In this document: in pieces, positions 689 through 12,447 of the stretch
Numbering within the stretch: position 1 is the first letter of the stretch
How the letters are laid out: every line of letters starts with the position of its first letter
Source: a virus
DNA: 12,447 nt
Direction: 5' to 3' (one strand)
UHGV virus genome: UHGV-1611333
Made by a program: the position numbers and the translations under genes
The notes under the pieces: model-generated
Told to the model about the DNA's origin: nothing
Databases searched by the model: none
Seen by the model: only the letters and a program-made list of their open reading frames with translations

Positions 689-875
689 GCTCCGAATAAA
701 AAAAGAGCAATAACTATGTTGAGAATGTGATTTCTATTACACCAAACATTATTAAACGGCATTCATCTTTAACTTTATTCAATGTATTATCTAACAGAAA
801 AGTTAAACTGCGCTAAGTTAGTGATAACATTGGTCATTGTTAGCTTGCGTTATCTATTTGAGTAAAGAGATTGTC
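689..875. promoter_or_regulatory. AT-rich divergent intergenic region, presumed to carry promoters for both flanking genes
   Basis: 187 bp AT-rich spacer between divergently oriented genes. It contains several GTTAG/CTAAC elements (about 792-797, 818-822, 839-843). No single -35/-10 pair could be assigned with confidence. Confidence 0.3.
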
Positions 876-1373: not shown

Positions 1374-1436
1374 TCCCCTTTTGAGTAAGAATCTTCGGGG
1401 TGTGATTCTGCGAAATTAACACACTCCATACCCTCT

Positions 1437-1474
1437 CAAACCGTACCGCTTAAGGCGGATTTAACGGTTTTGAG
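1437..1474 (+). terminator. Terminator-like two-tier hairpin directly upstream of the giant gene start
   Basis: CAAACCGT-ACCGC-TTAAG-GCGG-ATTTA-ACGGTTTT: outer 7-bp stem, inner CCGC/GCGG stem, then a TTTT run. It lies after the lipoprotein stop and ends at the first possible start codon of the giant ORF. Confidence 0.4.
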
Positions 1475-1484
1475 GGGGCTTCCT

Positions 1485-4400
1485 TTGGACAAAATAATTG
1501 ATTCAATTAGCCAGGCCACCAGCATTGGGGCGCTGATTGAAATTGTTAGTCGGTTGCATAAACCGCGAGCTGTAGTGACCTTTGGCGTTAAGAAAGTTGA
1601 TGGCGTCAGTATTCAGAAAACACGCCGGGCAGCAAACAACGCCGCAGTAGATCTTCTTAATTCCCTTCCGCCCGGCTTCGATGGGGCGAAATTAACTGAC
1701 GAACAGCGCCAGATTCTTGCCGGGTATACCGGTGAAGGCGGCCTGACAGATGGTGAGGGCAGCCAATACGAATACTACACGCCACAGTTTATGGCAGAAG
1801 GTATATGGGATCTCTTCGGCGACTACGGTATTGATGGCGGTCACGTACTGGAACCATCAGCGGGCACAGGTATTTTCCAGGAGACAAAACGGCAGGGCAT
1901 GATAATGACCAGCGCCGAACTGTCTCCGATTTCCGGTCGAATAAACCAGCTTTTGCACCCGGAAGACGATGTGAATATTGGGGCGTTTGAGGCGCTGGCG
2001 GCGAAAGACGCAATGTATGACCACGCTGTTGGTAACGTACCGTTTGGTGAAGGGCGTTCCGGCGTTGCCGGGCTTGATCCGGCATATGCAAACGAGAAGA
2101 ACGTTGGCAATTACTTTGTGTTGCGCACGATCGACAAGGTTAAGCCTGGTGGACTAATTGTATTGGTGGTGCCGAATGGCATGACCGATGGTACGAAATA
2201 CAAAAAATTGCGCGATAAAGTCAGCCGTAAGGCGGAATTTTTGGGCGCGCATCGTATGCCTTCTGGTACGTTCAGCGAATCCGGTACAGATACCGTGGTG
2301 GACGTATGGGTATTGCGTAAACACCCGGAAACCTTCCTGGAGATGATCCCCGACACGGATGATGCAACGCTCAAATCGGCAAACGTCCTTTGGGATACCT
2401 TCCTCAAAGGGAAATGGTTTACAACCGAAGGGAAGCGATTTGTTTACGGCGACATGGAACGCACCAGCTTCCGCAATACCCTGGTGGTGAAAAAGGACGG
2501 TCGTGTATCCAATGAGTCGATGAAAACCGCGTTATCACGCCGCTTTGAAAGCCGTATTAATTGGGATTTGCTCGGAGTAACTACCCAGGCATGGCAGGGC
2601 GCAAAAGTAGGGGATAAGCGCCTTGTAGGCGGTATCTGGCATGAGTTTGATGGCCTGAAATGGGTTAAGGACACGACAACCAAATCCTCCGCGCTTGATG
2701 TAAGTCGATATGGTGTTTCGACGTTTGGCGATCTGCAGATCGCGTTCCAGTCAACAAACGGGATTCTGGCTTTGTCATGGGACCAGATATCGGCGATCGC
2801 GTCCGACTATCCATCGGTTGTCAGTGATGAAGTGGCAGCAATGATTCGCTTTGCTGGCAAACAGCGAGAAAAAGACAGGGAGCGCGTTATGCGCGGTGCG
2901 TTGATAGGGCAGTTGATCAACAAGGCACTTGATTTGCGTAACCTGGGGGTGAACGTTGATGACAAACTGGCAGATGCATCCCGCCTGGCGGCAGCAGAAG
3001 TTGCGAAGTATGGACCACCGCACGCGATTAAGCTGAATGGGCTTGCAGAAGCTGGAGCTAAAAACTGGATGACGTTCACTGGCAACGTGAAACAGGATGG
3101 TTCCACTTCTGACCTTCTGGCAGGGCGACTTGATGTAACGGATGGTGCTGCCGGTATTGACTTTACACGTCCGGAACAAGTGATAGCACATCTTTTCAGT
3201 GATGTAGCCCTTAATCCTATAACGCTGGGCGACTTTCGTGAGGCGTTTGCTGGTGAACTGCCAGAGGACGACGACGCGGCCCTTGAATACCTGGCGAAAT
3301 TTGATGATATCGCTATTGATGGGTATGGCTGCCTGCTGCCGATGGACCGCGCCACCAGCGGCGATATTGCAACCAAAACAGCATTGCTGATGGGCTGGCG
3401 TGATGCGTCAACAGGTGAGCAGAAATCGAACTTTGAGCGTCAGTTGGCGAAAATCGAAGAGAAACGCATTTTCACGCCACTAAATAAAGTCACCGTTAAT
3501 CTGAACGCCCGCTGGCTGGATCGCCGCTTGATAAAAGAATTCCTGGCAGAGCAGGGCTATGACGAGTTTAAGTACACTGAACCTGATCTGAAGATCGTCG
3601 ATGGCATTCTGGTATCTCCGGACGATTACGAAGGTAAGGACGGGGTATTTACCGGCTATCAGCTACGAACCGTAAACGGCAAAAACGGGAATGAGTTCAA
3701 GAAGGCCAACAATAAAGACGGCTTCCTGAACCAGTTAGAAAACTACCTGAACGGTGTTAAACCGCGTGGGCAGAACGCTAACGAGTACCTGGATAAAATT
3801 GCTCAACTGGAAGTTAGTTTTAACGACTGGTTACGCACTCACCCGCAGGCTGATCAGATAGCCCGCGAGTATAACGACGCATTCAATGGCTTCATTCCGT
3901 TCACGCACTCTAACGCACCGCTTGGCCTGGAAGGGATTAGTGGAAAGCGCATTCCTCTGACTTATCAGAATGAAGAAGTTCGTCGCTTGTCAGAAGATGG
4001 GCGCGGCATCATGGGATTTGGTACCGGGCTGGGTAAAACCACGACCGCGCTTGCGCTTGAGGCGTATAACTTCGAAACAGGTCGCACTAAACGCACGTGT
4101 ATTGTTGTTCCGAAGGCGGTTTATCAGAACTGGTATCACGAGGCACAGAGCTTCTACAGTGCTGATGCCTTCGCAAATATGATGTTTATCGGTCTGGATG
4201 AAGTTCGTGATGAAGACGGCAATATTCTGACCGCGCCGGTGCTTGATGAAAATGGCGAACCCCGCCTCGACAGTAACGGGCAGCCTCTTACCAGAAATGT
4301 TGTGAAAGAGTCCGCCAGCGCCGTTATCGTTCAGCGCATGAACATGATCCCGTCGTCAAATTGGCGAACGATCATCATGACAAAAGAACAATTCGCGTCT

Positions 4401-7400
4401 ATCCCGCTACGAGAAAAAACCATCGAGGAGAACTCACAGCAAGCTGTCTTTAATGCTGTGGAAATGGGGCGTCTTGATCTGGCGTCCGGTAAACACCGTG
4501 ATGCGCAGAAGAAGAACAAGATTAAGGATCAGGCCGCGAATACCGGTACAACGAAGAAGCAGAATATCCCGTACTTTGAGGATATGAACTTCGATAGCGT
4601 GATTGCCGACGAGGGGCATAACTACCGCAACTCCTTTAATGCCGGGCGTGAAGCGGGACAACTGGCATATTTGCCTAACCCGGCAGTATCCAAGATGGCC
4701 CGCGACATGGCTGTAAAAGCTGCGTACATGATGAAACGCAACAACGGGCGTGGTGTAGTCATGCTGACGGCAACACCGCTGGTGAACAGTCCGATTGATG
4801 CCTTCAACATGCTGTCTACTGTCATTCCGCAGGAAGAGTGGATGCGCATGGGCATCATTACGCCTGATGATTTCGTTCGTGTGTTTGGTAAAACAGCCAC
4901 AGTTCAGGTCCAGAAAATTTCCGGGGAAGTGGAAGAGAAGCAGGGGCTGGTTGGCTTCCAGAACCTTGATGGCCTGCGTGGTATTTTCCATCGCTGGACT
5001 ACTCTGAAGACTGCTGCGGACGTCGGGGCGACGGTTAAAATCCCTGATATTGTCGAGAATACCTTGCAGATCCCGATGACAGGGGAGCAGGAGGCTGCTT
5101 ATGAAGAGCTTCGTAAGCGTGCACAGGAGTTAAGTAGTAAAGATGCGCTGACGGTTGATGAAAACGGGCATATCACAAACGAAAAACCGGATGATTTCAT
5201 CTTCTCCATCATCCGCGACATGGATAAGGTTGCTATAGATCCGGATCTGTATGCCAGTGCGATTACATTCCAGTTCCCCGTTGAGCTTGCAGACAAGGTA
5301 AAAGCTATTGCTGATGCCCTGCCAAAAGTAGCTGGCGGTAAAGTGGCAGATGATGCAGACGAGGCCGAAGAAGACGGCGCTGGTGGACTGGTTAGTACGC
5401 GCACCAGTAAGGTAGTGAAGACCACCTTTAGTGAACATCCGGCGCATGTTGAAATACGCGCCAGCATTGAACTGGAAGCTGAAATACTGAGGGCCATTGC
5501 TGCCGCCGGGATTGATCTACAGCAGGTATCACACCCCATCCCGCCGAAGTATGCCGCGCTGATCGAAAACCTTCGTGAAGGTCTGAAGAACGGTAAACAA
5601 ATTGTCTTCATTGATGAAAAAGCCCAGCACCAGAAGCTGCGCCGTATTATCGCCAGTGCACTGCAAATGCCGGAGCAGGAGATAGGCATTATCAATGCGA
5701 CGACCGTTAGCCAGGCTGGCGGCATCAAGCTGAAGAAGGTGAATAAGCCGACTGAACCTACTCCGAATAAAAACGGTGAATACAAAGAAGGGGCATGGGA
5801 AACCTACTACAGCAAACTTGCCCAATATGAGGATTATCTCTCAGCTAAAAATGATGCTGGCCTTGAGGGTATGGAAGGCATTGCCGCCGACTATAACGAA
5901 GGGCGCACGCGCATCATTATCTGTAACAAGAAGGCTGAAGTAGGTATTAACCTGCATATCGGGACAACCGATATCCACCACCTGACACTACCCTGGACAC
6001 CAGCCAGTATCGACCAACGAAATGGGCGCGGTGCGCGCGTAGGCTCACCGCAAGAGAAGGTCAATGTTCACTACTACTGTGGCAAAGGCACATTTGATGA
6101 TTTCCGCCTGGATACGCTGAAACGCAAGAAAGACTGGATCAAGATGGTGATGACCTCCGACATGTCAGAGATCGCCAATGGTGATGCGGATGATGCAGAT
6201 GAACGCGCCATTATGCTGGCAGCAAACCCGGAAGAACGCCGCGCAATCATGGCTCGCCAGGCACAAGAGCGTGAAGAACGTCTGAAACTGAAAGCACAGC
6301 GCGAGGCCAACAATGCTCTCGATATCTACCTGAAAGCGGCAAACGCCGCCGGAAAAGATATCGGCATGATGGAGACAGAACTGAAAAGCGCGATGGAACA
6401 GATAGAGTATTATCAGCGCAATCTTGACGACCTGATAAAAGCGGGTACGAACAGGAATGGGCAAAAATACGCGCTTGAGCAGTTGAGTAGCTACAGAAAA
6501 CGTGCGCGGGTGCTGCGGTTTGCGATCACCAGGGCAAAAGACGCGGATACCATTATGAAACGCTCTCGTGGTGATGTGGAACGCGCTATTAAGTCTGGTG
6601 TGCTGGATATCAGCATCGATGTTATTCAGAACCCGCAAGAATATATGCGCACTGACAAGAACATTCTGTTGCATAAAGGTAGTTATTACCGTGCAGTCAT
6701 TGATGATCGCGAAACAACAGCGATTGTCCGGGTGGAAAAAATTGACGGTGAAAAAGCACAATACCTCTGCCGTATCGCCTGGCTGGATAGAGCAAGTCGT
6801 TACGCTCGAGCACCGGGGTCAATCGTTACATTGCCGTTTGACTCTGTGATTGAAGCGGTAACTTTTGAAGAGGGGGTAGCTGAATCGCGCGCAACGGCTG
6901 CGCGTGGTGTTCAGTGCCACCAGCTATCAACAATACTTACTCGCGATCAGTTCTATGATGCTATTCGCAATGGGGTAATGAATGTTATTGCTGGTAAATC
7001 TGGTAATGCATGGGGCGGTGGGTCAGCTATTAAATACTGGGCATATCGCACAGATGATGGTCAGATCGCGCTGTCATCGGCCTATGATGGCGTGATAGGC
7101 CAAAAAATCGGGCGAGCATCGGATATAGCACCTGAGCGATGGATATATCCTGATGGCAACGACGAGGCGCTGAAGCGTGAAGTGGCAAAAATACAAGCCA
7201 GTGATAACCCGCTGAATATCGTGGACGGCGAGGGATTCCTCCAGGCATTGTATGGGTATGATTACATCCAGGGAATGCAGGCATGGGGCGCACAGGCAAC
7301 GATGGATGATGTTGCCCAGGAGTTCGAAAACTGGATGGCTGGGCGTGGTCTGTCAGGTCGTTCGCTTAATAAAGTCACTTCTGAAGATATTCTTAGCTTG

Positions 7401-8321
7401 TTCCGCAAACCGTCCGGAGAAGGTCTGGAATCATTCTGGAGGACCGTGCTGGCATACCGTTTATTCCAGGGCAGGATGAAAGCCTTTAGCAATATCGATG
7501 ATATTGAACGGATGTTTAATCAGGTCAAGATAGCGAAAATTAAGACGAAGATCGAAAAAACACGTTCTGCGCTGGTGGCCTGGCGCGATGCATTGTTTGA
7601 GCAATATAAATCACTCAGTGATGCAGATGGATGGGCGGCACTGGAACAGTTGGCGAATAATGGGGTAGATGGAGCGAAACTCGCCATTGTCCAGGCTGAT
7701 AACCCCCTGGAATCACCGGCAGCACAGTGGATTAAGGTGGGGGCTGTCATCAATGCATTTGATGAAAAACACATTAGTAAGGACGATTTTGCTGATGCTG
7801 TTTCTGTTAATCGCCTGGTAGAAATGGCTACCCGCCGCGCCCGTGAGTTGAAAGACGGTGACTATGTGAATGAGTTGCCGGATGCGCTCAAATCAGCAAC
7901 GTGGCAAGACTATGTATCGCTGAAAAACGGCGGGGCCACCGAATCAGAGATCGCGGAAAGGCTTGAACAGGCTGAAAGCAAAAGAGAAGAGCAGGCGGCA
8001 GTGGCTGAAGCCAGAGCTGATGAAGCGGCGAATGATGACTATATCATTGTGGTTAATGATAAGCCGATTCGCGCTAAGGCGCGTGTTCGCGGGCGCTGGT
8101 GGAGCGTCAGCGAGGACGTCGGTGCGGTTTATCTCATTGCCGACCAACCTGGTTCCTCGACAATACGGAACGCCAAAGACGCGATTAAGAAGATTGGCGG
8201 GCGTTTCTGGAATTTTGAAGCAAACCCGGTTGCTGATGTGAACTTTGACCGTCCGGCATGGATGGTATCTACGCGTTACTCGGTAGATGAACTGCGTAAA
8301 ATAATCGCCGATGCGGCCTAA
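1485..8321 (+). CDS. Giant fused N6-adenine DNA methyltransferase / SF2 helicase protein (phage P1 DarB-like antirestriction architecture)
   Basis: 6.8-kb uninterrupted ORF. Methyltransferase motif I VLEPSAGTGIF (about nt 1848-1874) and motif IV GNVPFG (2031-2048). Helicase Walker A GFGTGLGKTT (about 4011-4040), DEGH box (4605-4619), LTATPL motif III and motif VI QRNGRGARVG (6015-6044). The C-terminal ~700 aa are coiled-coil-rich with no recognised motifs. The ORF is open from TTG 1470, but TTG 1485 has a GAGGGGG Shine-Dalgarno 6 nt upstream and is the more likely start. Confidence 0.9.
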   Translation: MDKIIDSISQATSIGALIEIVSRLHKPRAVVTFGVKKVDGVSIQKTRRAANNAAVDLLNSLPPGFDGAKLTDEQRQILAGYTGEGGLTDGEGSQYEYYTPQFMAEGIWDLFGDYGIDGGHVLEPSAGTGIFQETKRQGMIMTSAELSPISGRINQLLHPEDDVNIGAFEALAAKDAMYDHAVGNVPFGEGRSGVAGLDPAYANEKNVGNYFVLRTIDKVKPGGLIVLVVPNGMTDGTKYKKLRDKVSRKAEFLGAHRMPSGTFSESGTDTVVDVWVLRKHPETFLEMIPDTDDATLKSANVLWDTFLKGKWFTTEGKRFVYGDMERTSFRNTLVVKKDGRVSNESMKTALSRRFESRINWDLLGVTTQAWQGAKVGDKRLVGGIWHEFDGLKWVKDTTTKSSALDVSRYGVSTFGDLQIAFQSTNGILALSWDQISAIASDYPSVVSDEVAAMIRFAGKQREKDRERVMRGALIGQLINKALDLRNLGVNVDDKLADASRLAAAEVAKYGPPHAIKLNGLAEAGAKNWMTFTGNVKQDGSTSDLLAGRLDVTDGAAGIDFTRPEQVIAHLFSDVALNPITLGDFREAFAGELPEDDDAALEYLAKFDDIAIDGYGCLLPMDRATSGDIATKTALLMGWRDASTGEQKSNFERQLAKIEEKRIFTPLNKVTVNLNARWLDRRLIKEFLAEQGYDEFKYTEPDLKIVDGILVSPDDYEGKDGVFTGYQLRTVNGKNGNEFKKANNKDGFLNQLENYLNGVKPRGQNANEYLDKIAQLEVSFNDWLRTHPQADQIAREYNDAFNGFIPFTHSNAPLGLEGISGKRIPLTYQNEEVRRLSEDGRGIMGFGTGLGKTTTALALEAYNFETGRTKRTCIVVPKAVYQNWYHEAQSFYSADAFANMMFIGLDEVRDEDGNILTAPVLDENGEPRLDSNGQPLTRNVVKESASAVIVQRMNMIPSSNWRTIIMTKEQFASIPLREKTIEENSQQAVFNAVEMGRLDLASGKHRDAQKKNKIKDQAANTGTTKKQNIPYFEDMNFDSVIADEGHNYRNSFNAGREAGQLAYLPNPAVSKMARDMAVKAAYMMKRNNGRGVVMLTATPLVNSPIDAFNMLSTVIPQEEWMRMGIITPDDFVRVFGKTATVQVQKISGEVEEKQGLVGFQNLDGLRGIFHRWTTLKTAADVGATVKIPDIVENTLQIPMTGEQEAAYEELRKRAQELSSKDALTVDENGHITNEKPDDFIFSIIRDMDKVAIDPDLYASAITFQFPVELADKVKAIADALPKVAGGKVADDADEAEEDGAGGLVSTRTSKVVKTTFSEHPAHVEIRASIELEAEILRAIAAAGIDLQQVSHPIPPKYAALIENLREGLKNGKQIVFIDEKAQHQKLRRIIASALQMPEQEIGIINATTVSQAGGIKLKKVNKPTEPTPNKNGEYKEGAWETYYSKLAQYEDYLSAKNDAGLEGMEGIAADYNEGRTRIIICNKKAEVGINLHIGTTDIHHLTLPWTPASIDQRNGRGARVGSPQEKVNVHYYCGKGTFDDFRLDTLKRKKDWIKMVMTSDMSEIANGDADDADERAIMLAANPEERRAIMARQAQEREERLKLKAQREANNALDIYLKAANAAGKDIGMMETELKSAMEQIEYYQRNLDDLIKAGTNRNGQKYALEQLSSYRKRARVLRFAITRAKDADTIMKRSRGDVERAIKSGVLDISIDVIQNPQEYMRTDKNILLHKGSYYRAVIDDRETTAIVRVEKIDGEKAQYLCRIAWLDRASRYARAPGSIVTLPFDSVIEAVTFEEGVAESRATAARGVQCHQLSTILTRDQFYDAIRNGVMNVIAGKSGNAWGGGSAIKYWAYRTDDGQIALSSAYDGVIGQKIGRASDIAPERWIYPDGNDEALKREVAKIQASDNPLNIVDGEGFLQALYGYDYIQGMQAWGAQATMDDVAQEFENWMAGRGLSGRSLNKVTSEDILSLFRKPSGEGLESFWRTVLAYRLFQGRMKAFSNIDDIERMFNQVKIAKIKTKIEKTRSALVAWRDALFEQYKSLSDADGWAALEQLANNGVDGAKLAIVQADNPLESPAAQWIKVGAVINAFDEKHISKDDFADAVSVNRLVEMATRRARELKDGDYVNELPDALKSATWQDYVSLKNGGATESEIAERLEQAESKREEQAAVAEARADEAANDDYIIVVNDKPIRAKARVRGRWWSVSEDVGAVYLIADQPGSSTIRNAKDAIKKIGGRFWNFEANPVADVNFDRPAWMVSTRYSVDELRKIIADAA

Positions 8322-8357
8322 CAGATAGGGAGCGGCCCCATCCGGGGCCGAATTTGA

Positions 8358-8792
8358 ATGACGACATTAATTGACACTGTAAAACCGACGGAATCCTACC
8401 TTGAGGATATTTTGCCGCAGGCGCTCAATGGCAGGAGTGAAGAGGCGTTTCTGGATGCATATCTGGATGGTATGGTGGAAAGGCTGAAACGAGATCCACA
8501 GCTTTATCATCTTTATGGCCCGTGGTGGCCTGCGCTTAAAACGTTATTGCTGGAGCGCGGCGACATCTCATTTGGACAAGTTGTAGATAGTGATGTGGCA
8601 GAGATCTACAAAATGAGTCGCCCGGCGCTTACGGTTTTATCCGGGCATCTGTATTCGAGCGATCGCCTGGAAAATGACGCGGTATACAATCCCGTTCATG
8701 CTCTGGAAGTCGCGCCTTATGCTGATGATACAGAGCCATACGTGTACACAAGTTACGACGAGTCGATAGAGAAATATCGAATCATGGGGTAG
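8358..8792 (+). CDS. Hypothetical protein (144 aa)
   Basis: ORF starts 36 nt after the giant gene stop, in the same orientation. No recognisable motif. No obvious Shine-Dalgarno; a GC hairpin (8333-8350) sits between an upstream AGGGAG and the ATG. Confidence 0.55.
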   Translation: MTTLIDTVKPTESYLEDILPQALNGRSEEAFLDAYLDGMVERLKRDPQLYHLYGPWWPALKTLLLERGDISFGQVVDSDVAEIYKMSRPALTVLSGHLYSSDRLENDAVYNPVHALEVAPYADDTEPYVYTSYDESIEKYRIMG

Positions 8793-8794
8793 CT

Positions 8795-9055
8795 ATGCGA
8801 AAGAATCGTAGGTTTACGATCGACGACTTAAAAGCGTACTCACAAGGGAAGGGATACGCCCTTGAATACCACCGTTATAAGCGGGTATTTACCCTGCGGC
8901 ATATAAAAAACCCTTCGAAATGGGGATGGATTTATTTTCCGCACACTGACGATAAGCTGGTGGGCCTTGTTGATGATTTATCCTATGAAGGATGGATGAT
9001 CGCTATCGACAAGGCGGTTACAGAAATTAACGAACCGGATAAAATAAACCATTAA
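8795..9055 (+). CDS. Hypothetical protein (86 aa), translationally coupled to the upstream ORF
   Basis: ATG lies 2 nt after the stop of the 144-aa ORF (ATGGGGTAGCTATG), with GGGG serving as a Shine-Dalgarno. Basic N-terminus; no recognised domain. Confidence 0.5.
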   Translation: MRKNRRFTIDDLKAYSQGKGYALEYHRYKRVFTLRHIKNPSKWGWIYFPHTDDKLVGLVDDLSYEGWMIAIDKAVTEINEPDKINH

Positions 9056-9061
9056 AAATAA

Positions 9062-9097
9062 CAAGTTGGGTAAATGACATACAATTTACCCGGCTTG
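9062..9097. other. Strong hairpin after the 86-aa gene
   Basis: CAAGTTGGGTAAAT / ATTTACCCGGCTTG arms (about 14 bp with two G-U pairs) and an 8-nt loop. The flanking A/T tract lies upstream on the + strand, i.e. a U tract on the minus-strand transcript, so it could stop antisense transcription or stabilise the + strand 3' end. Confidence 0.4.
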
Positions 9098-9178
9098 TTG
9101 ACCCGCATCACCATTTACTCTAAAAACAAGTCCGACCTGTTGCATACGCCTATCTCTTTAGTAGTATCCCCCCTGATT

Positions 9179-9206
9179 TTGATAAAACTAACGCTCTTGT
9201 TATTAT
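9179..9206 (+). promoter_or_regulatory. Candidate sigma70 promoter for the VRR-NUC operon
   Basis: TTGATA (9179-9184), 16-nt spacer, TATTAT (9201-9206). A second weaker candidate is TTGACC (9098-9103), 17-nt spacer, TAAAAA (9121-9126). Confidence 0.4.
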
Positions 9207-9230
9207 CGTAATCCTGATTTCAGGAAGTTT

Positions 9231-9240
9231 GTGTTAGAAA
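9231..9240 (+). promoter_or_regulatory. Copy 1 of the recurrent GTGTTAGAAA motif
   Basis: GTGTTAGAAA sits 4 nt upstream of ATG 9245 and about 25 nt downstream of the candidate -10, i.e. an operator-like position in the 5' UTR. Confidence 0.4.
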
Positions 9241-9244
9241 TTTG

Positions 9245-9688
9245 ATGCGAAGACGCAGGCATCATAGTGCGTATTCTGAAATATCCCCGCACGCTGCTGC
9301 ACTAAGAGAGTTAGAAAGAAATCCTGACTTACTAAAAAGGAATTTCGAACATTACGAACAGGTTCGCGTTCTGGATTGGCTGTATCGCAACATGCGATAC
9401 GTGTATGAACACACACACTCAACACCGAACGGCGGCCTGAGAGGCAAAAGGACAGCCATTAAGATGGTGGCAGAAGGTCAGAAGAAGGGCTATCCGGACC
9501 TTTCTATTGACCTTGCTCGTGGTGGGTATCACGGAATGCGCATTGAGATGAAGCACGGGAGAAACCGTCTGACTCCCGAACAGCTTGTCTGGATGACCCG
9601 CCTCACGGAAGCAGGCTATTACTGCTTTGAGGCGCGCAGTGCCGATGAAGCCATAAAAGCTATCACGGAATATGTAAATCTTGATTAA
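9245..9688 (+). CDS. VRR-NUC domain nuclease (PD-(D/E)xK superfamily)
   Basis: N-terminal EQVRVLDWL element and catalytic core GYPDLSIDLARGGYHGMRIEMKHG (PD ... E-x-K) encoded at about 9487-9555. The ORF track starts at TTG 9242; ATG 9245 is used here. Confidence 0.75.
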   Translation: MRRRRHHSAYSEISPHAAALRELERNPDLLKRNFEHYEQVRVLDWLYRNMRYVYEHTHSTPNGGLRGKRTAIKMVAEGQKKGYPDLSIDLARGGYHGMRIEMKHGRNRLTPEQLVWMTRLTEAGYYCFEARSADEAIKAITEYVNLD

Positions 9689-9702
9689 ACGGAGAAATCG
9701 TT

Positions 9703-9903
9703 TTGCGTTTACTTAACGTGGCTGAACTTATCCCTGCCGGTGCTAACGTTGTTGCTCGTCGCTGCTCATGGCCTCATTCTTTCTGTATAGAGCTTAAAAA
9801 GATGGATGATGGGGCATTAGAAGCCCGAAACATAGTTACCGGCGACAAGGTATGCATTACCCCGGAAAGCGCGAAAGCCAATGATTGGGAGTTTGTTCAT
9901 TGA
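9703..9903 (+). CDS. Hypothetical small protein (66 aa)
   Basis: TTG start with GGAG 8 nt upstream (9691-9694), 14 nt after the VRR-NUC stop. No recognised motif. Confidence 0.4.
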   Translation: MRLLNVAELIPAGANVVARRCSWPHSFCIELKKMDDGALEARNIVTGDKVCITPESAKANDWEFVH

Positions 9904-9965
9904 GCAGAAAACACCACGTAAATCTGACGTTTGCTGATGACGCCGGAAGAACCAGAAGCATAACC

Positions 9966-10211
9966 ATGAAAGTTGCTTCCAGGAAAGTAACCGCTCCACT
10001 TATACGAGAGGCCGTAAGTGAACTTGAGATGAGTGAGAATGCAGCTCTGTTATCGGTAAGCTGGCTGGGGAAAATGACGGATCAGGAATACTCGGATGGT
10101 ATACCCCACGGTGAGCGGCAGATAGTAAAGCGCGCGCTTAGAATTTCAGAGGTAGTTGTCGTACTGATAGCTTTGATTTATATGGCATACATGCTACTCC
10201 AACACGTCTAA
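9966..10211 (+). CDS. Small protein with a C-terminal transmembrane helix (tail-anchored), 81 aa from ATG 9966
   Basis: The ORF is open from TTG 9885, which would overlap the upstream gene by 19 nt. The first ATG is at 9966. The C-terminus EVVVVLIALIYMAYMLLQHV is a clear hydrophobic helix. A strong terminator follows the stop. Confidence 0.4.
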   Translation: MKVASRKVTAPLIREAVSELEMSENAALLSVSWLGKMTDQEYSDGIPHGERQIVKRALRISEVVVVLIALIYMAYMLLQHV

Positions 10212-10219
10212 ACGGTCAT

Positions 10220-10246
10220 AAACCCGCCAGTTGGCGGGTTTTTTGT
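10220..10246 (+). terminator. Rho-independent terminator of the VRR-NUC operon
   Basis: AAACCCGCC-AGTT-GGCGGGTTTTTTG: 6-7 bp GC stem, 4-nt loop, U tract, beginning 9 nt after the stop at 10209-10211. Confidence 0.8.
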
Positions 10247-10285
10247 TGCCTGAGTCTTTTTATTGAAATTGCATACTAATAAAAT

Positions 10286-10304
10286 GTGTTAGAAAACTAA
10301 TTTC
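10286..10304 (+). promoter_or_regulatory. Copy 2 of the recurrent motif (GTGTTAGAAAACTAATTTC)
   Basis: Located between the terminator and the RBS (AGGGAA 10310-10315) of the 402-aa gene, 17 nt before ATG 10321. A TTGAAA element at 10264-10269 is nearby. Confidence 0.45.
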
Positions 10305-10320
10305 AAAAAAGGGAACAAAC

Positions 10321-11529
10321 ATGAGTCAGCAAGTAGAATCATCAAGCCTGGAGATCATCTCAACCGCAATTGAAACGCTGCGGACACAAATCGCGCTTAT
10401 ACAGAAACGAAATCCGGGCGATGATCTGTCAAAGCGACTGCATGAGAGCGTCATTGCCACTACAGATAACCTGGTGGCGGAAATCAACCAGCTCCTTGAT
10501 GATGGGGCAGTTGATTACAATAAGCTGGTGGATCAGTTTGAGGAATATCAGCAAGCCGTTAATGATGGCTTGATCCGTTTTTCTCAAGTCACTGGTGTAT
10601 CTGCGACAGTTGAAAGCCTGGGGGATGCTGTTAATCAATTTGCCGCGAATATGCGTAATGAGATCGGCAATCTGGAGGCGCGTCTTGAGCAGGCAAATAC
10701 ATTGCGCAAATCTGCTGAAGTCGATTTGAGTCGTTACAAAAAAGACTATCCGCCAAGCCTGACAAAACGACTGGATGTTGCGGAGAAAGATAACCGCACT
10801 CTGAAAAGAGAGCGTCGGGAACTAAAAGAGCGCTTAACCAAGCTAAATCAGCAATGCGTTGAGTATCAAGGCGAACTCGTCACACTGCGTAAAAAGTTAG
10901 CAGCGGCGCAGAGCATTATTGAAACATTGAAACGAGAGTGCTCAGAGCTTGGTAATGATCTGAATCGCGCCTGTGGCATGGGGCAAAGGCCAGAGACATT
11001 CCCGCTAATGTATGACGGAAGAGAAGCTATTGCCTATATCCATGAGTTTCCGCATGGTCTGGTCGCGGAGACTGGGCAACGTGGCGAAGCGTTGCTGACG
11101 GCAAATTACCATCAGCAAATCAGAACCAGCCGCCTGCTGACGATGGATGTGATCCCGTCAGTATGGGGAACGCCGCTTTACTACCGAATTCCTGGCTTCG
11201 AAACTGACTGGAATACCGACATAGACGAATGTCTGGCAGATAAAATTATGGCGTACCTTGAAACGGATTTTCCACGCTTGCATCGCCGGATTATGGACTC
11301 TAAGGATGCACCGATCGACGAATTGAAAATGCGTCCAGAGACGTTGGAGGCAATCAAGCAGACTGAGTTTGATACGGTGTTCAGTGTGGCCTGCATTCCA
11401 AGCAGCTTTCATGAAAGCATTCCGTTCATGCAGGGCGATCGACGTCAGGAAATAATTGATGCTTGCCGGGTATGGGCGAACGAGTGGGATAAGAAGAACG
11501 GTGGAGTTGAAAATCTTTACGGGAAATAA
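10321..11529 (+). CDS. Hypothetical coiled-coil protein (402 aa) with a C-terminal globular domain
   Basis: Long ORF with an RBS. Residues about 1-220 are heptad-rich and charged (e.g. LKRERRELKERLTKLNQQCVEYQGELVTLRKKLAAAQSIIETLKRE). The C-terminal ~180 aa are non-repetitive. No catalytic motif recognised. Confidence 0.85.
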   Translation: MSQQVESSSLEIISTAIETLRTQIALIQKRNPGDDLSKRLHESVIATTDNLVAEINQLLDDGAVDYNKLVDQFEEYQQAVNDGLIRFSQVTGVSATVESLGDAVNQFAANMRNEIGNLEARLEQANTLRKSAEVDLSRYKKDYPPSLTKRLDVAEKDNRTLKRERRELKERLTKLNQQCVEYQGELVTLRKKLAAAQSIIETLKRECSELGNDLNRACGMGQRPETFPLMYDGREAIAYIHEFPHGLVAETGQRGEALLTANYHQQIRTSRLLTMDVIPSVWGTPLYYRIPGFETDWNTDIDECLADKIMAYLETDFPRLHRRIMDSKDAPIDELKMRPETLEAIKQTEFDTVFSVACIPSSFHESIPFMQGDRRQEIIDACRVWANEWDKKNGGVENLYGK

Positions 11530-11530
11530 T

Positions 11531-11562
11531 GTGTTAGAAAACTAAAATTATCTTTCTAACAT
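11531..11562. promoter_or_regulatory. Copy 3 of the motif, arranged as an inverted repeat (TGTTAGAAA-N12-TTTCTAACA)
   Basis: GTGTTAGAAAACTAAAATTATC at 11531-11552 begins 2 nt after the 402-aa stop. Its 9-bp reverse complement TTTCTAACA lies at 11553-11561, giving a palindromic operator-like site or an AU-rich hairpin. Confidence 0.45.
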
Positions 11563-11598
11563 GTTGATTATGGAATTAACTTAACATAGAATTTTTCG

Positions 11599-11667
11599 TG
11601 CTGGTGGGGAGCTTCCCATGTCGCTTGCGGGTTTGATAGTCACTTCATTGTCTTCTCCCCACCAGCA
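11599..11667. repeat. Perfect 12-bp inverted repeat (TGCTGGTGGGGA / TCCCCACCAGCA) with a 45-nt spacer
   Basis: Arms at 11599-11610 and 11656-11667. A 25-codon ORF (ATG 11618, GGGGAG upstream) starts inside the loop. No flanking U tract, so not a classic terminator. Confidence 0.4.
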
Positions 11668-11681
11668 TCAAACAAATTTAA

Positions 11682-11700
11682 GTGTTAGAAAGTAAATTTA
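11682..11700 (+). promoter_or_regulatory. Copy 4 of the recurrent motif (GTGTTAGAAAGTAAATTTA)
   Basis: Same 10-nt core followed by a TAAATT element, at the entrance to the structured non-coding region. Confidence 0.4.
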
Positions 11701-11903
11701 AGGGTAAGGGAAAGCTCCGGCACCGTGCAAATACATGCCCGGCAGGTTTAGTGCGTAAAGTGGTTTCAGCGAGAGCATTTTACGGAGTAAACGACAGTGA
11801 CTTGAGCCACGGAAGGTCTTTTTAAGGTGTTCATTGATGATGATCTGGCAGTGAGTATGTTAAGTGGGCCAGGCTGCATCGGGTCATCATCAGTGCACAT
11901 CCT

Positions 11904-11971
11904 CAACGTTAAGGAGGCGCAGAGTTGGGTTTTCCTCTTATTTTGCTGACTCTGAGTCTCCTTAACGTTGC
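11904..11971. repeat. Long imperfect inverted repeat / RNA hairpin that sequesters a strong Shine-Dalgarno
   Basis: Left arm CAACGTTAAGGAG GCGCAGAG (11904-11924) pairs with CTCTGAGT CTCCTTAACGTTG (about 11951-11971): 13 perfect bp plus about 6 more with 2 mismatches. AAGGAGG at 11911-11917 is inside the left arm. Confidence 0.5.
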
Positions 11972-12104
11972 GGTAATGCACCTATGCGGATGTGGCCTTG
12001 CATTGTGTTTTGAAAGAATGGGGCAAGGCCGGGGATATCCCCAGGGGGAGGCACCCCCGCTGCAACGAACAGCCATAGACGGCAGTCGAGTGATGAAAAC
12101 GTGA
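11925..12104 (+). CDS. Candidate small hydrophobic peptide (59 aa, TTG start); speculative
   Basis: TTG 11925 lies 7 nt after AAGGAGG. It translates to MGFPLILLTLSLLNVAVMHLCGCGLALCFERMGQGRGYPQGEAPPLQRTAIDGSRVMKT, stop at 12102-12104. The hydrophobic N-terminal half is encoded across the hairpin. It is below the ORF-track size cutoff and may be a structured RNA rather than coding. Confidence 0.2.
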   Translation: MGFPLILLTLSLLNVAVMHLCGCGLALCFERMGQGRGYPQGEAPPLQRTAIDGSRVMKT

Positions 12105-12192
12105 AAAGACTTTAAACCTCGTTACGGCTGGCGTGGCAAACGCGACAACCGGGATAGGACGGTGACGGGCGGAGAGAGAGCCGCTTCAAGAT

Positions 12193-12259
12193 AAAAGCCG
12201 ACTATGGATTCCTTTCTGCGGGCCTTTGAAAGTGAATCTTGCTCAGGCAGTCGGCTTTT
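12193..12259. repeat. 11-bp perfect inverted repeat (AAAAGCCGACT / AGTCGGCTTTT) with a 45-nt spacer
   Basis: Arms at 12193-12203 and 12249-12259, followed by TTTTATGTTG. Either a large-loop hairpin within a structured RNA or a weak terminator. Confidence 0.4.
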
Positions 12260-12391
12260 ATGTTGATACGTAGCGATAACCGCGACAGGCGCGGCGGCAA
12301 GTATGGCGGGGTAGTGACTCCTTCCCCCTCATGACGCCGAGTTGCCAGGTTGACCATACGCCTAAGTGGCAATACCGCGAGTGGGATATTT

Positions 12392-12417
12392 GCCCATCTT
12401 CGGGTGGGCGTTTTTTT
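12392..12417 (+). terminator. Textbook intrinsic terminator with a UUCG tetraloop
   Basis: GCCCATC-TTCG-GGTGGGC (7-bp stem including one G-U pair, C(UUCG)G tetraloop) followed by GTTTTTTT at 12410-12417. A possible ATG of a downstream gene follows at 12431. Confidence 0.8.
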
Positions 12418-12447
12418 CAGGGTTTTCGTCATGGTTAGCGACTTTGC

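Follow-up and report, generated by a model that had tools for sequence, protein, structure and literature searches.

The 12,447-nucleotide stretch of viral DNA examined here (UHGV virus genome UHGV-1611333; the whole stretch is referred to below as the window) raises the question of what one very long open reading frame (ORF), which appears to join a DNA methyltransferase (MTase) to a helicase in a single polypeptide, does for the replicon that carries it. A sequence-only reading had proposed a giant methyltransferase-helicase fusion resembling DarB, the antirestriction protein of phage P1, and had left undecided whether the product is an injected or transferred antirestriction factor, part of a defence system, or something else. 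Judged by homology, this ORF is darB, carried by a D6-like Escherichia phage-plasmid related to P1. Its product is very probably a functional antirestriction DarB delivered by the virion, with packaging, ejection and protection against type I restriction extrapolated from P1.

Identity of the gene and its replicon

The predicted protein aligns without gaps to orf15 of phage D6 (ASR76325.1, GenBank MF356679), with 97.9% amino acid (aa) and 96.8% nucleotide identity, and the GenBank annotation of that ORF reads "defense against restriction; similar to P1 gene darB". With P1 DarB (AAQ13985.1) it is colinear, residues 1–1935 aligning to P1 residues 1–1924 at 43.3% identity (E = 0), and a second, weak match joins residues 2142–2278 to P1 residues 2131–2255 (26.6% identity, E 0.02). 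Among the PHROGs, phrog_1685 is matched over its full length and phrog_10089 ("DarB-like antirestriction") is matched as well. The proposed DarB-type fusion is borne out by these comparisons, and the length of ~2250 aa given for P1 DarB was correct (2255 aa). The suggested comparison with P1 DarB and Pfam models returned homology and helicase matches, with the N6_Mtase and Eco57I models remaining below cut-off. The ORF thus adds one more allele to a gene of a well-known family, for which a published phage genome already gives a darB-homologue annotation. D6 orf15 shares with it the length of 2278 aa, the TTG start, a leader hairpin and the downstream order ulx, orf13, pmgM, pmgR, pmgS; it differs at ~48 residues, eight of which fall within the first 30, the most variable stretch between the two alleles.

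The ORF is uninterrupted on the + strand over 2283 codons (1470..8321 in the ORF listing of the window), a stop-free run with a chance probability of (61/64)^2283, or ~1e-48, at ~50% GC. It opens mechanically at TTG 1470, upstream of the likely start. TTG 1485 is the most probable true start, since a Shine-Dalgarno sequence (GAGGGGG, 1471–1477) lies 7 nt before this codon, Met1 of P1 DarB pairs with it in the alignment, and both the D6 orf15 annotation and the RefSeq/PGAP call of the closest plasmid begin there. Residues are numbered from this codon throughout. The resulting product of 2278 aa has a predicted mass of ~252 kDa, so that the single polypeptide of ~2280 aa described from the letters alone stands.

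Phage D6 (MF356679), a plasmid prophage related to P1, matches 91% of the window at 92.7% identity; E. coli plasmids of ~90–94 kb such as NZ_CP085065.1 match the whole window at 98.3% identity. Of 5426 complete E. coli genomes, 93 (~1.7%) carry full-length D6-type darB (90–99% identity), nearly always on a plasmid, and the copies in E. coli plasmids are labelled "SNF2-related protein" in RefSeq. Conjugative transfer, one of the roles left open by the sequence-only reading, is not supported: 576 of the 599 plasmids matching the window are typed non-mobilizable. We rejected a conjugative-transfer (polyvalent-protein) role, the replicons being phage-plasmids of this type. NZ_CP085065.1 also carries its own type I restriction-modification (R-M) genes (hsdM, hsdS, hsdR) beside phd/doc (locus 42795–48443), instead of the type III system EcoP1I carried by P1.

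Compared with the D6 allele, darB has accumulated far more synonymous (dS 0.117) than nonsynonymous change (dN 0.0096). The resulting dN/dS is 0.08, and it does not exceed 0.17 in any segment, including the C-terminal third. The gene is under purifying selection over its whole length.

Domain architecture

The features of the window and of the darB product are collected in Table 1.

Table 1 Coordinates of darB, its predicted domains and other features in the window
Feature	Position	Strand	Size or basis
CHAP/TIGR02594 peptidoglycan hydrolase gene	197-688	-
Leader hairpin, CCCUCUCA paired with the darB Shine-Dalgarno UGAGGGGG just before the TTG start	1431..1478	+
darB orthologue (D6 type)	1485..8321	+	2278 aa plus stop; ORF, homology, phrog_1685, dN/dS
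N-terminal 30 residues, positional equivalent of the P1 capsid-targeting signal	1485..1574	+	predicted helical
N-terminal helical domain, LPD36 (Iyer et al. 2017)	1485..1769	+	GYTGEGG motif, model helices
Predicted gamma-class N6-adenine DNA MTase domain	1770..2384	+	motifs, Foldseek, marginal Pfam
Middle region without family assignment	2385..3944	+	~520 aa; no Pfam match, confident model
SNF2-type SF2 ATPase/translocase	3945..6164	+	Pfam, motifs
C-terminal third, residues 1561-2278	6165..8318	+	fast-evolving, family-restricted, without known relatives
Three long helices, residues 1582-1703, the only coiled-coil-like part	6228..6593	+	DSSP of model
Small all-beta domain, residues 1720-1792	6642..6860	+	seven strands
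Terminal alpha/beta domain, residues 2186-2277	8040..8315	+	weak P1 C-terminus likeness, model strands and helices
ulx homologue, DarB accessory gene	8358..8792	+	144 aa; phrog_1629 "Ulx-like anti-restriction"
VRR-NUC (pmgM-like) gene, then pmgR-like gene	downstream of ulx region
PmgS-like head-morphogenesis gene	10321-11529
Chi sites	5379, 7571, 8095, 8956, 10524, 11600	+
Chi sites	1516, 3352, 6917, 11659	-

In P1, a reporter protein is directed to the capsid by the first 30 aa of DarB alone (PMC9024508). An AlphaFold model of residues 1–830, with a predicted local distance difference test score (pLDDT) of 82.7, places helices at residues 2–9 and 14–24 of the D6-type protein, and a helical pattern near the N-terminus, S-[IV]-x-E-L-[IL], recurs across the DarB family. 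We conjecture that the variability of this stretch between the D6 allele and ours fits co-evolution with cognate capsid partners. The surrounding LPD36 domain, a type described in PMC5512222, contains a GxGU-type motif (GYTGEGG at residue 80) that is also kept in P1.

The predicted N6-adenine MTase core follows. It carries a TP cap (residues 99–100), motif I as EPSAGTG (123–129) and motif IV as NVPF (184–187). The Pfam N6_Mtase model scores 20.0 bits, marginally under its cut-off of 20.4, and Eco57I is likewise below cut-off. A Foldseek search with the model of residues 1–830 retrieves type I HsdM, M.TaqI, M.BseCI, PacII and CamA with a probability of 1.0 (best E 2.7e-9). HsdM, M.TaqI and M.BseCI are the best structural matches of the domain (E 2.7e-9 to 1e-6), and it superimposes on TaqI, BseCI and PacII with a root-mean-square deviation of 3.2–4.3 Å over ~200 residues; its sequence match in the PDB is an HsdM (7eew). 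Because the TP cap and motifs I and IV are present and the Foldseek matches agree, we regard the MTase assignment, predicted from motifs and model, as secure despite the sub-cut-off Pfam score, and the MTase core proposed from sequence is upheld. Unlike type I HsdM, M.TaqI and M.BseCI, this domain is fused to an SNF2 motor and has NVPF as motif IV. Among 15 full-length relatives the motif reads NVPF in 11 and the canonical NPPF/Y in four, with the Asn and the second Pro invariant. No target-recognition domain of the HsdS or TaqI type was detected in D6-type DarB.

Beyond the MTase, the middle region is of mixed alpha/beta structure, with ~26–46% identity to the query per 60-residue bin across the family and a dN/dS of 0.059. 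It leads into the SNF2 motor, for which Pfam scores exceed the cut-offs for SNF2-rel_dom (49.3 vs 24.9 bits), Helicase_C (24.6 vs 23.5) and ResIII. The complete SF2 motif set noted earlier is confirmed, with Walker A as GTGLGKT (846–852, including K851), DEGH (1042–1045), TATP (1095) and motif VI as QRNGRGARVG (1511–1520), all kept in the 15 family members at 33–53% identity. A PDB sequence search with the whole protein returned weak HsdM and INO80 matches only, and no solved DarB structure.

This layout fits the methylase-helicase dyad described, with DarB as archetype, by Iyer et al. 2017 (PMC5512222). P1 DarB shows the same succession of LPD36, gamma-class N6-adenine MTase, a middle region of ~500 aa, SNF2 ATPase and a tail of ~700 aa, and its catalytic motifs are identical, including NVPF. 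DarB-like polyvalent proteins of Bcep22-like podophages and methylase-SNF2 dyads of conjugative elements share the LPD36-MTase-SNF2 core (PMC5512222), a relation seen here in the phrog_10089 match and in tblastn matches of 25–33% identity over the MTase and helicase parts. Those proteins differ in their length of 3700–4600 aa and their extra effector domains, and lack both a ulx partner and the C-terminal third of the P1 and D6 types.

Since R-M systems typically pair an MTase with a helicase (PMC5512222), the gene could instead belong to a host-protective defence system, R-M-like or a methylase-helicase of the DISARM, Zorya or BREX kind, that excludes other phages. PADLOC and NCBIfam do return weak SNF2-domain matches to DrmD, ZorD, DpdE and BrxHII. 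However, these matches are generic and cover the helicase C-lobe only, with 44.5 bits against a cut-off of 610 for DrmD and 31.7 against 500 for DpdE; membership of DISARM DrmD, Zorya ZorD, DpdE or BrxH was rejected on scores so far under the curated cut-offs. Moreover, no nuclease or partner defence genes adjoin darB, whose neighbours are phage morphogenesis and Dar genes, and the characterised orthologue is a virion protein (PMC9024508). We consider a defence-system role very improbable.

Dar partner genes

The ulx homologue begins 36 nt past the darB stop, as in P1, and its product shares 46% identity with P1 Ulx (E 4e-44). The same adjacency is found in two relatives on metagenomic contigs of 88–93 kb (L005 and L006), the DarB proteins of which are 53% and 34% identical to the D6 type. 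Upstream of darB in these contigs lie genes of 547–566 aa and 334–335 aa, which we read, from size and position, as putative portal and prohead-protease genes. Phage D6 has homologues of hdf, darA, ddrA and ddrB ~7 kb from darB. In NZ_CP085065.1, PHROG profiles identify Hdf-like and DdrA-like proteins, and the genes at the positions of D6 darA and ddrB have PHROG matches that carry no Dar name. Taking the homologues in D6 and the closest plasmid together with ulx and darB, all six known Dar components exist in the D6-type lineage. P1 has the same set of partner genes in its own genome, where ulx also lies directly 3' of darB.

A DUF3944/HTH/HicA/TnpB insertion separates the ddrA-like from the ddrB-like gene in NZ_CP085065.1 (locus 7722–11107).

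The C-terminal third

Family identity falls from 50–65% in the catalytic cores to 10–17% past residue 1620, with one bin (1681–1740) reaching 28%, and the overall length of the protein is kept despite this divergence. A word-indexed homologue search with the C-terminal 728 aa retrieved near-identical fragments only and was replaced by an exhaustive HMMER scan of 1.84 billion representatives, in which residues 1551–2278 matched 37 clusters only; all full-length members of these are DarB-type proteins of 2190–2302 aa. The C-terminal ~720 aa have no Pfam, PDB or viral-structure relatives, and a profile built from a four-sequence C-terminal alignment gave nothing meaningful against PDB sequences or Pfam. 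The earlier remark that this third is unexplored still holds after the family, PDB and viral-structure searches.

The structure prediction suggested for the C-terminal ~700 aa was run on a 19-sequence alignment and gave an AlphaFold model with a pLDDT of 84.1 and a predicted template-modelling score (pTM) of 0.49, the latter leaving domain packing uncertain. DSSP assigns the long helices to 32–72, 76–103 and 107–153 in the numbering of the 728-aa C-terminal query. The expectation of a coiled-coil-rich C-terminus is therefore met for ~120 of the ~720 aa, and the remainder, in which two further long helices follow, is predicted to form globular domains. The all-beta domain is probably an SH3-like or Tudor-like barrel. 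After it come a mixed segment, in which the motif YPD..D..LK (residues ~1888–1897) is invariant, a helical domain and the terminal domain, in which Lys 2235 and Trp 2259 are conserved (K685 and W709 of the query, invariant in alignment A4). Going by the model and the alignments, the C-terminal third is real, folded and selected, and has no recognisable relatives.

Divergence of this kind could mean that the DarB homologue of the D6 lineage serves mainly in something other than type I antirestriction, either against BREX or other defences or as a head or ejection (pilot) protein, with the divergent C-terminus redirecting its targets. The C-terminal third is the fastest-evolving part of the protein and partly unalignable with P1; Dar also protects against BREX according to a review (PMC12707154), DarA and Hdf have morphogenetic roles (PMC12810830), and the conflict landscape differs, given the type I R-M system of the closest plasmid in place of the type III system of P1. 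Yet the lineage has kept the full Dar partner set with ulx adjacent to darB, the catalytic cores remain 50–65% conserved with P1-type proteins, and the sequence contains no pointer to a specific alternative target. Such a change of role appears unlikely to us.

A narrower proposal keeps the antirestriction function and treats the C-terminal third (~1620–2278) as a specificity module, one that determines either the host restriction or defence complexes DarB can neutralise or the capsid partners that load it. D6-type and P1-type DarB would then cover different systems. In addition, the leader hairpin ahead of the TTG start could set DarB dosage translationally. We hold this reading to be possible, if on the doubtful side.

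Probable antirestriction from the virion

P1 DarB, ~250 kDa in size, resides in the head in ~40 copies, is loaded after all other Dar components and is listed as the inhibitor of EcoK and EcoB (PMC9024508). Loading of the Dar proteins is ordered, with Hdf and DarA first, and they are co-ejected with the DNA (PMC12810830). Protection is conferred only in cis, on DNA from the same head (PMC12707154).

Extrapolating from P1, the ~252 kDa D6-type protein would be made late in the lytic cycle and recruited into the procapsid by its N-terminal helical signal. Its entry would require the remaining Dar proteins, with Hdf and DarA leading and DdrA, DdrB and Ulx next. Each head would hold tens of copies of DarB, which would leave with the phage DNA and shield it in cis from restriction of the EcoK/EcoB kind (type IA/IB). 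Within the new host, the SNF2 motor may move DarB along the entering duplex, and the HsdM/TaqI-like MTase may methylate adenines before host enzymes act there, or DarB may occupy the DNA and so obstruct them; the fast-evolving C-terminal third may provide lineage-specific contacts with capsid partners or host restriction complexes. In the simplest model, DarB would be an MTase that stays bound to DNA and translocates along it. MTase and SNF2 activities are probably both needed, since both motif sets are invariant in the family down to 33% identity. Any specific biochemical mode for D6-type DarB is tentative, with somewhat less than an even chance at best.

Several points weigh against carrying the P1 function over to the D6 type. 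We found no experiment on a D6-type DarB, and even for P1 DarB the biochemical mechanism "has not been defined" (PMC11109961). The first 30 residues, as counted on the alignment, are identical to P1 at only 5 of 30 positions (~17%), motif IV is NVPF and not the canonical NPPF/Y in a domain whose MTase activity is a prediction, and residues 1936–2141 do not align to P1 DarB. The presence of hdf, darA, ddrA and ddrB in this genome, outside the window, is inferred from the 98.3%-identical plasmid. The DdrB proteins of the D6 type measure 454–461 aa (D6 orf25, locus L003, 434–1798; NZ_CP085065.1, locus L004, 11314–12699) and that of P1 is reported at 108.7 kDa (PMC9024508); at about half the size, they suggest that Dar assembly may differ. 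Finally, the anti-EcoKI effect of cloned P1 darB in trans was traced to Chi and EcoKI sites that induce ClpXP-dependent restriction alleviation, for which the protein and its catalytic residues are irrelevant (PMC11109961).

This last result bears on a further explanation, in which restriction alleviation comes mainly from the DNA, a Chi-rich darB provoking RecBCD/ClpXP-dependent alleviation. The window holds ten Chi sites (GCTGGTGG) in 12.4 kb, against ~0.44 expected, and six of them lie within darB; plasmid-borne fragments of P1 darB alleviate EcoKI restriction through Chi and an EcoKI site independently of translation (PMC11109961). However, a dN/dS of 0.08 and invariant catalytic motifs indicate that the protein is under selection, and the sole EcoKI site of the window (533) lies outside darB; the other sites of this kind in the window are one for EcoBI and two for EcoAI. 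Furthermore, the phenotype of P1 darB is a cis effect exerted from the virion (PMC12707154), and Chi enrichment is a trait of the whole P1 genome (PMC11109961). Effects of DNA and protein are also not mutually exclusive. An explanation by DNA alone is extremely improbable in our judgement, and delivery of a functional DarB with the virion DNA remains the reading we favour.

Upstream leader and neighbouring genes

The region 5' of darB is arranged differently from that of P1, where darB and prt/pro diverge; in the window, darB is preceded by a CHAP hydrolase gene and a predicted lipoprotein gene. The latter (876–1373, +; 165 aa) is of low GC, has the lipobox LSGC (MKKAILATIVCAFALSGC) and is situated between the hydrolase gene and darB. 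It matches phrog_14789, gives sub-threshold hints of a CarboxypepD_reg/prealbumin-like beta-sandwich and has a weakly Cor-like N-terminus. The gene is absent from D6, and the sequence found upstream of darB in D6 is split in the window into 712–789 and 1411–1484, with insertion boundaries at ~790 and ~1410; a cassette of ~620 bp has thus been inserted. Placed between a promoter-like box and the leader of darB, the insert resembles a moron cassette, and the lipoprotein gene is probably co-transcribed with darB.

In the leader itself, the hairpin that pairs with the Shine-Dalgarno sequence has a minimum free energy of -27.4 kcal/mol (z -3.6), and the same fold is found in D6 (z -3.7). The 53%-identical relative has an analogous hairpin (z -2.5), and there is none in P1 or in the 34%-identical relative (L006). 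P1 darB uses ATG and has no hairpin sequestering its Shine-Dalgarno, whereas the D6 type uses TTG and has one. Judged from these predicted folds, the hairpin may act as a translational control of DarB dosage.

The promoter-like box, ATGTGATTT at 725–733 (+), is similar to the -22 box found in late promoters of P1 (AAGTGATTT of LPlyz, AAGTGACTA of LPpro) and is also present upstream of D6 darB. The -10 sequence following it here (TACACC/TATTAC) is poor, and for this reason we do not call a promoter at this box. A sigma-70 promoter scan of 600–1600 found nothing over the shuffle expectation.

Downstream of ulx, an 86-aa ORF (8795–9055, +) matches phrog_6844, of unknown function, and occupies the position of lxc in P1. 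It was rejected as an Lxc homologue, having no similarity to P1 Lxc.

No convincing ORF is present in the ~900 bp that follow the pmgS-like gene (11530–12447), a non-coding region in which two Chi sites in inverted orientation (GCTGGTGGGGA ... TCCCCACCAGC) make up the arms of a hairpin at ~11600–11666. A long hairpin lies at ~11895–11980. The last 177 bp (12271–12447) are 81–90% identical to the "dicF-like region" of P1/P7. The window contains no Rfam family at the gathering threshold and no tRNA, and a relaxed Rfam scan of 11500–12447 gave only chance hairpin (miRNA-precursor) matches.

Implications for the DarB family

The window has little discovery value as such: how DarB works and what its C-terminal part does are questions for the whole family, and the window does not make them newly testable. 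What it does represent is a second natural DarB, 43% identical to that of P1, with intact catalytic residues and a different C-terminal third. Being so diverged, D6-type DarB would be a useful comparator or domain-swap partner in studies of how DarB blocks type I restriction. Engineering of phagemid delivery with P1 and D6-type particles could also gain, since the N-terminal signal offers a way of loading protein cargo. In RefSeq, finally, the name "SNF2-related protein" hides a probable antirestriction function on widespread plasmids.

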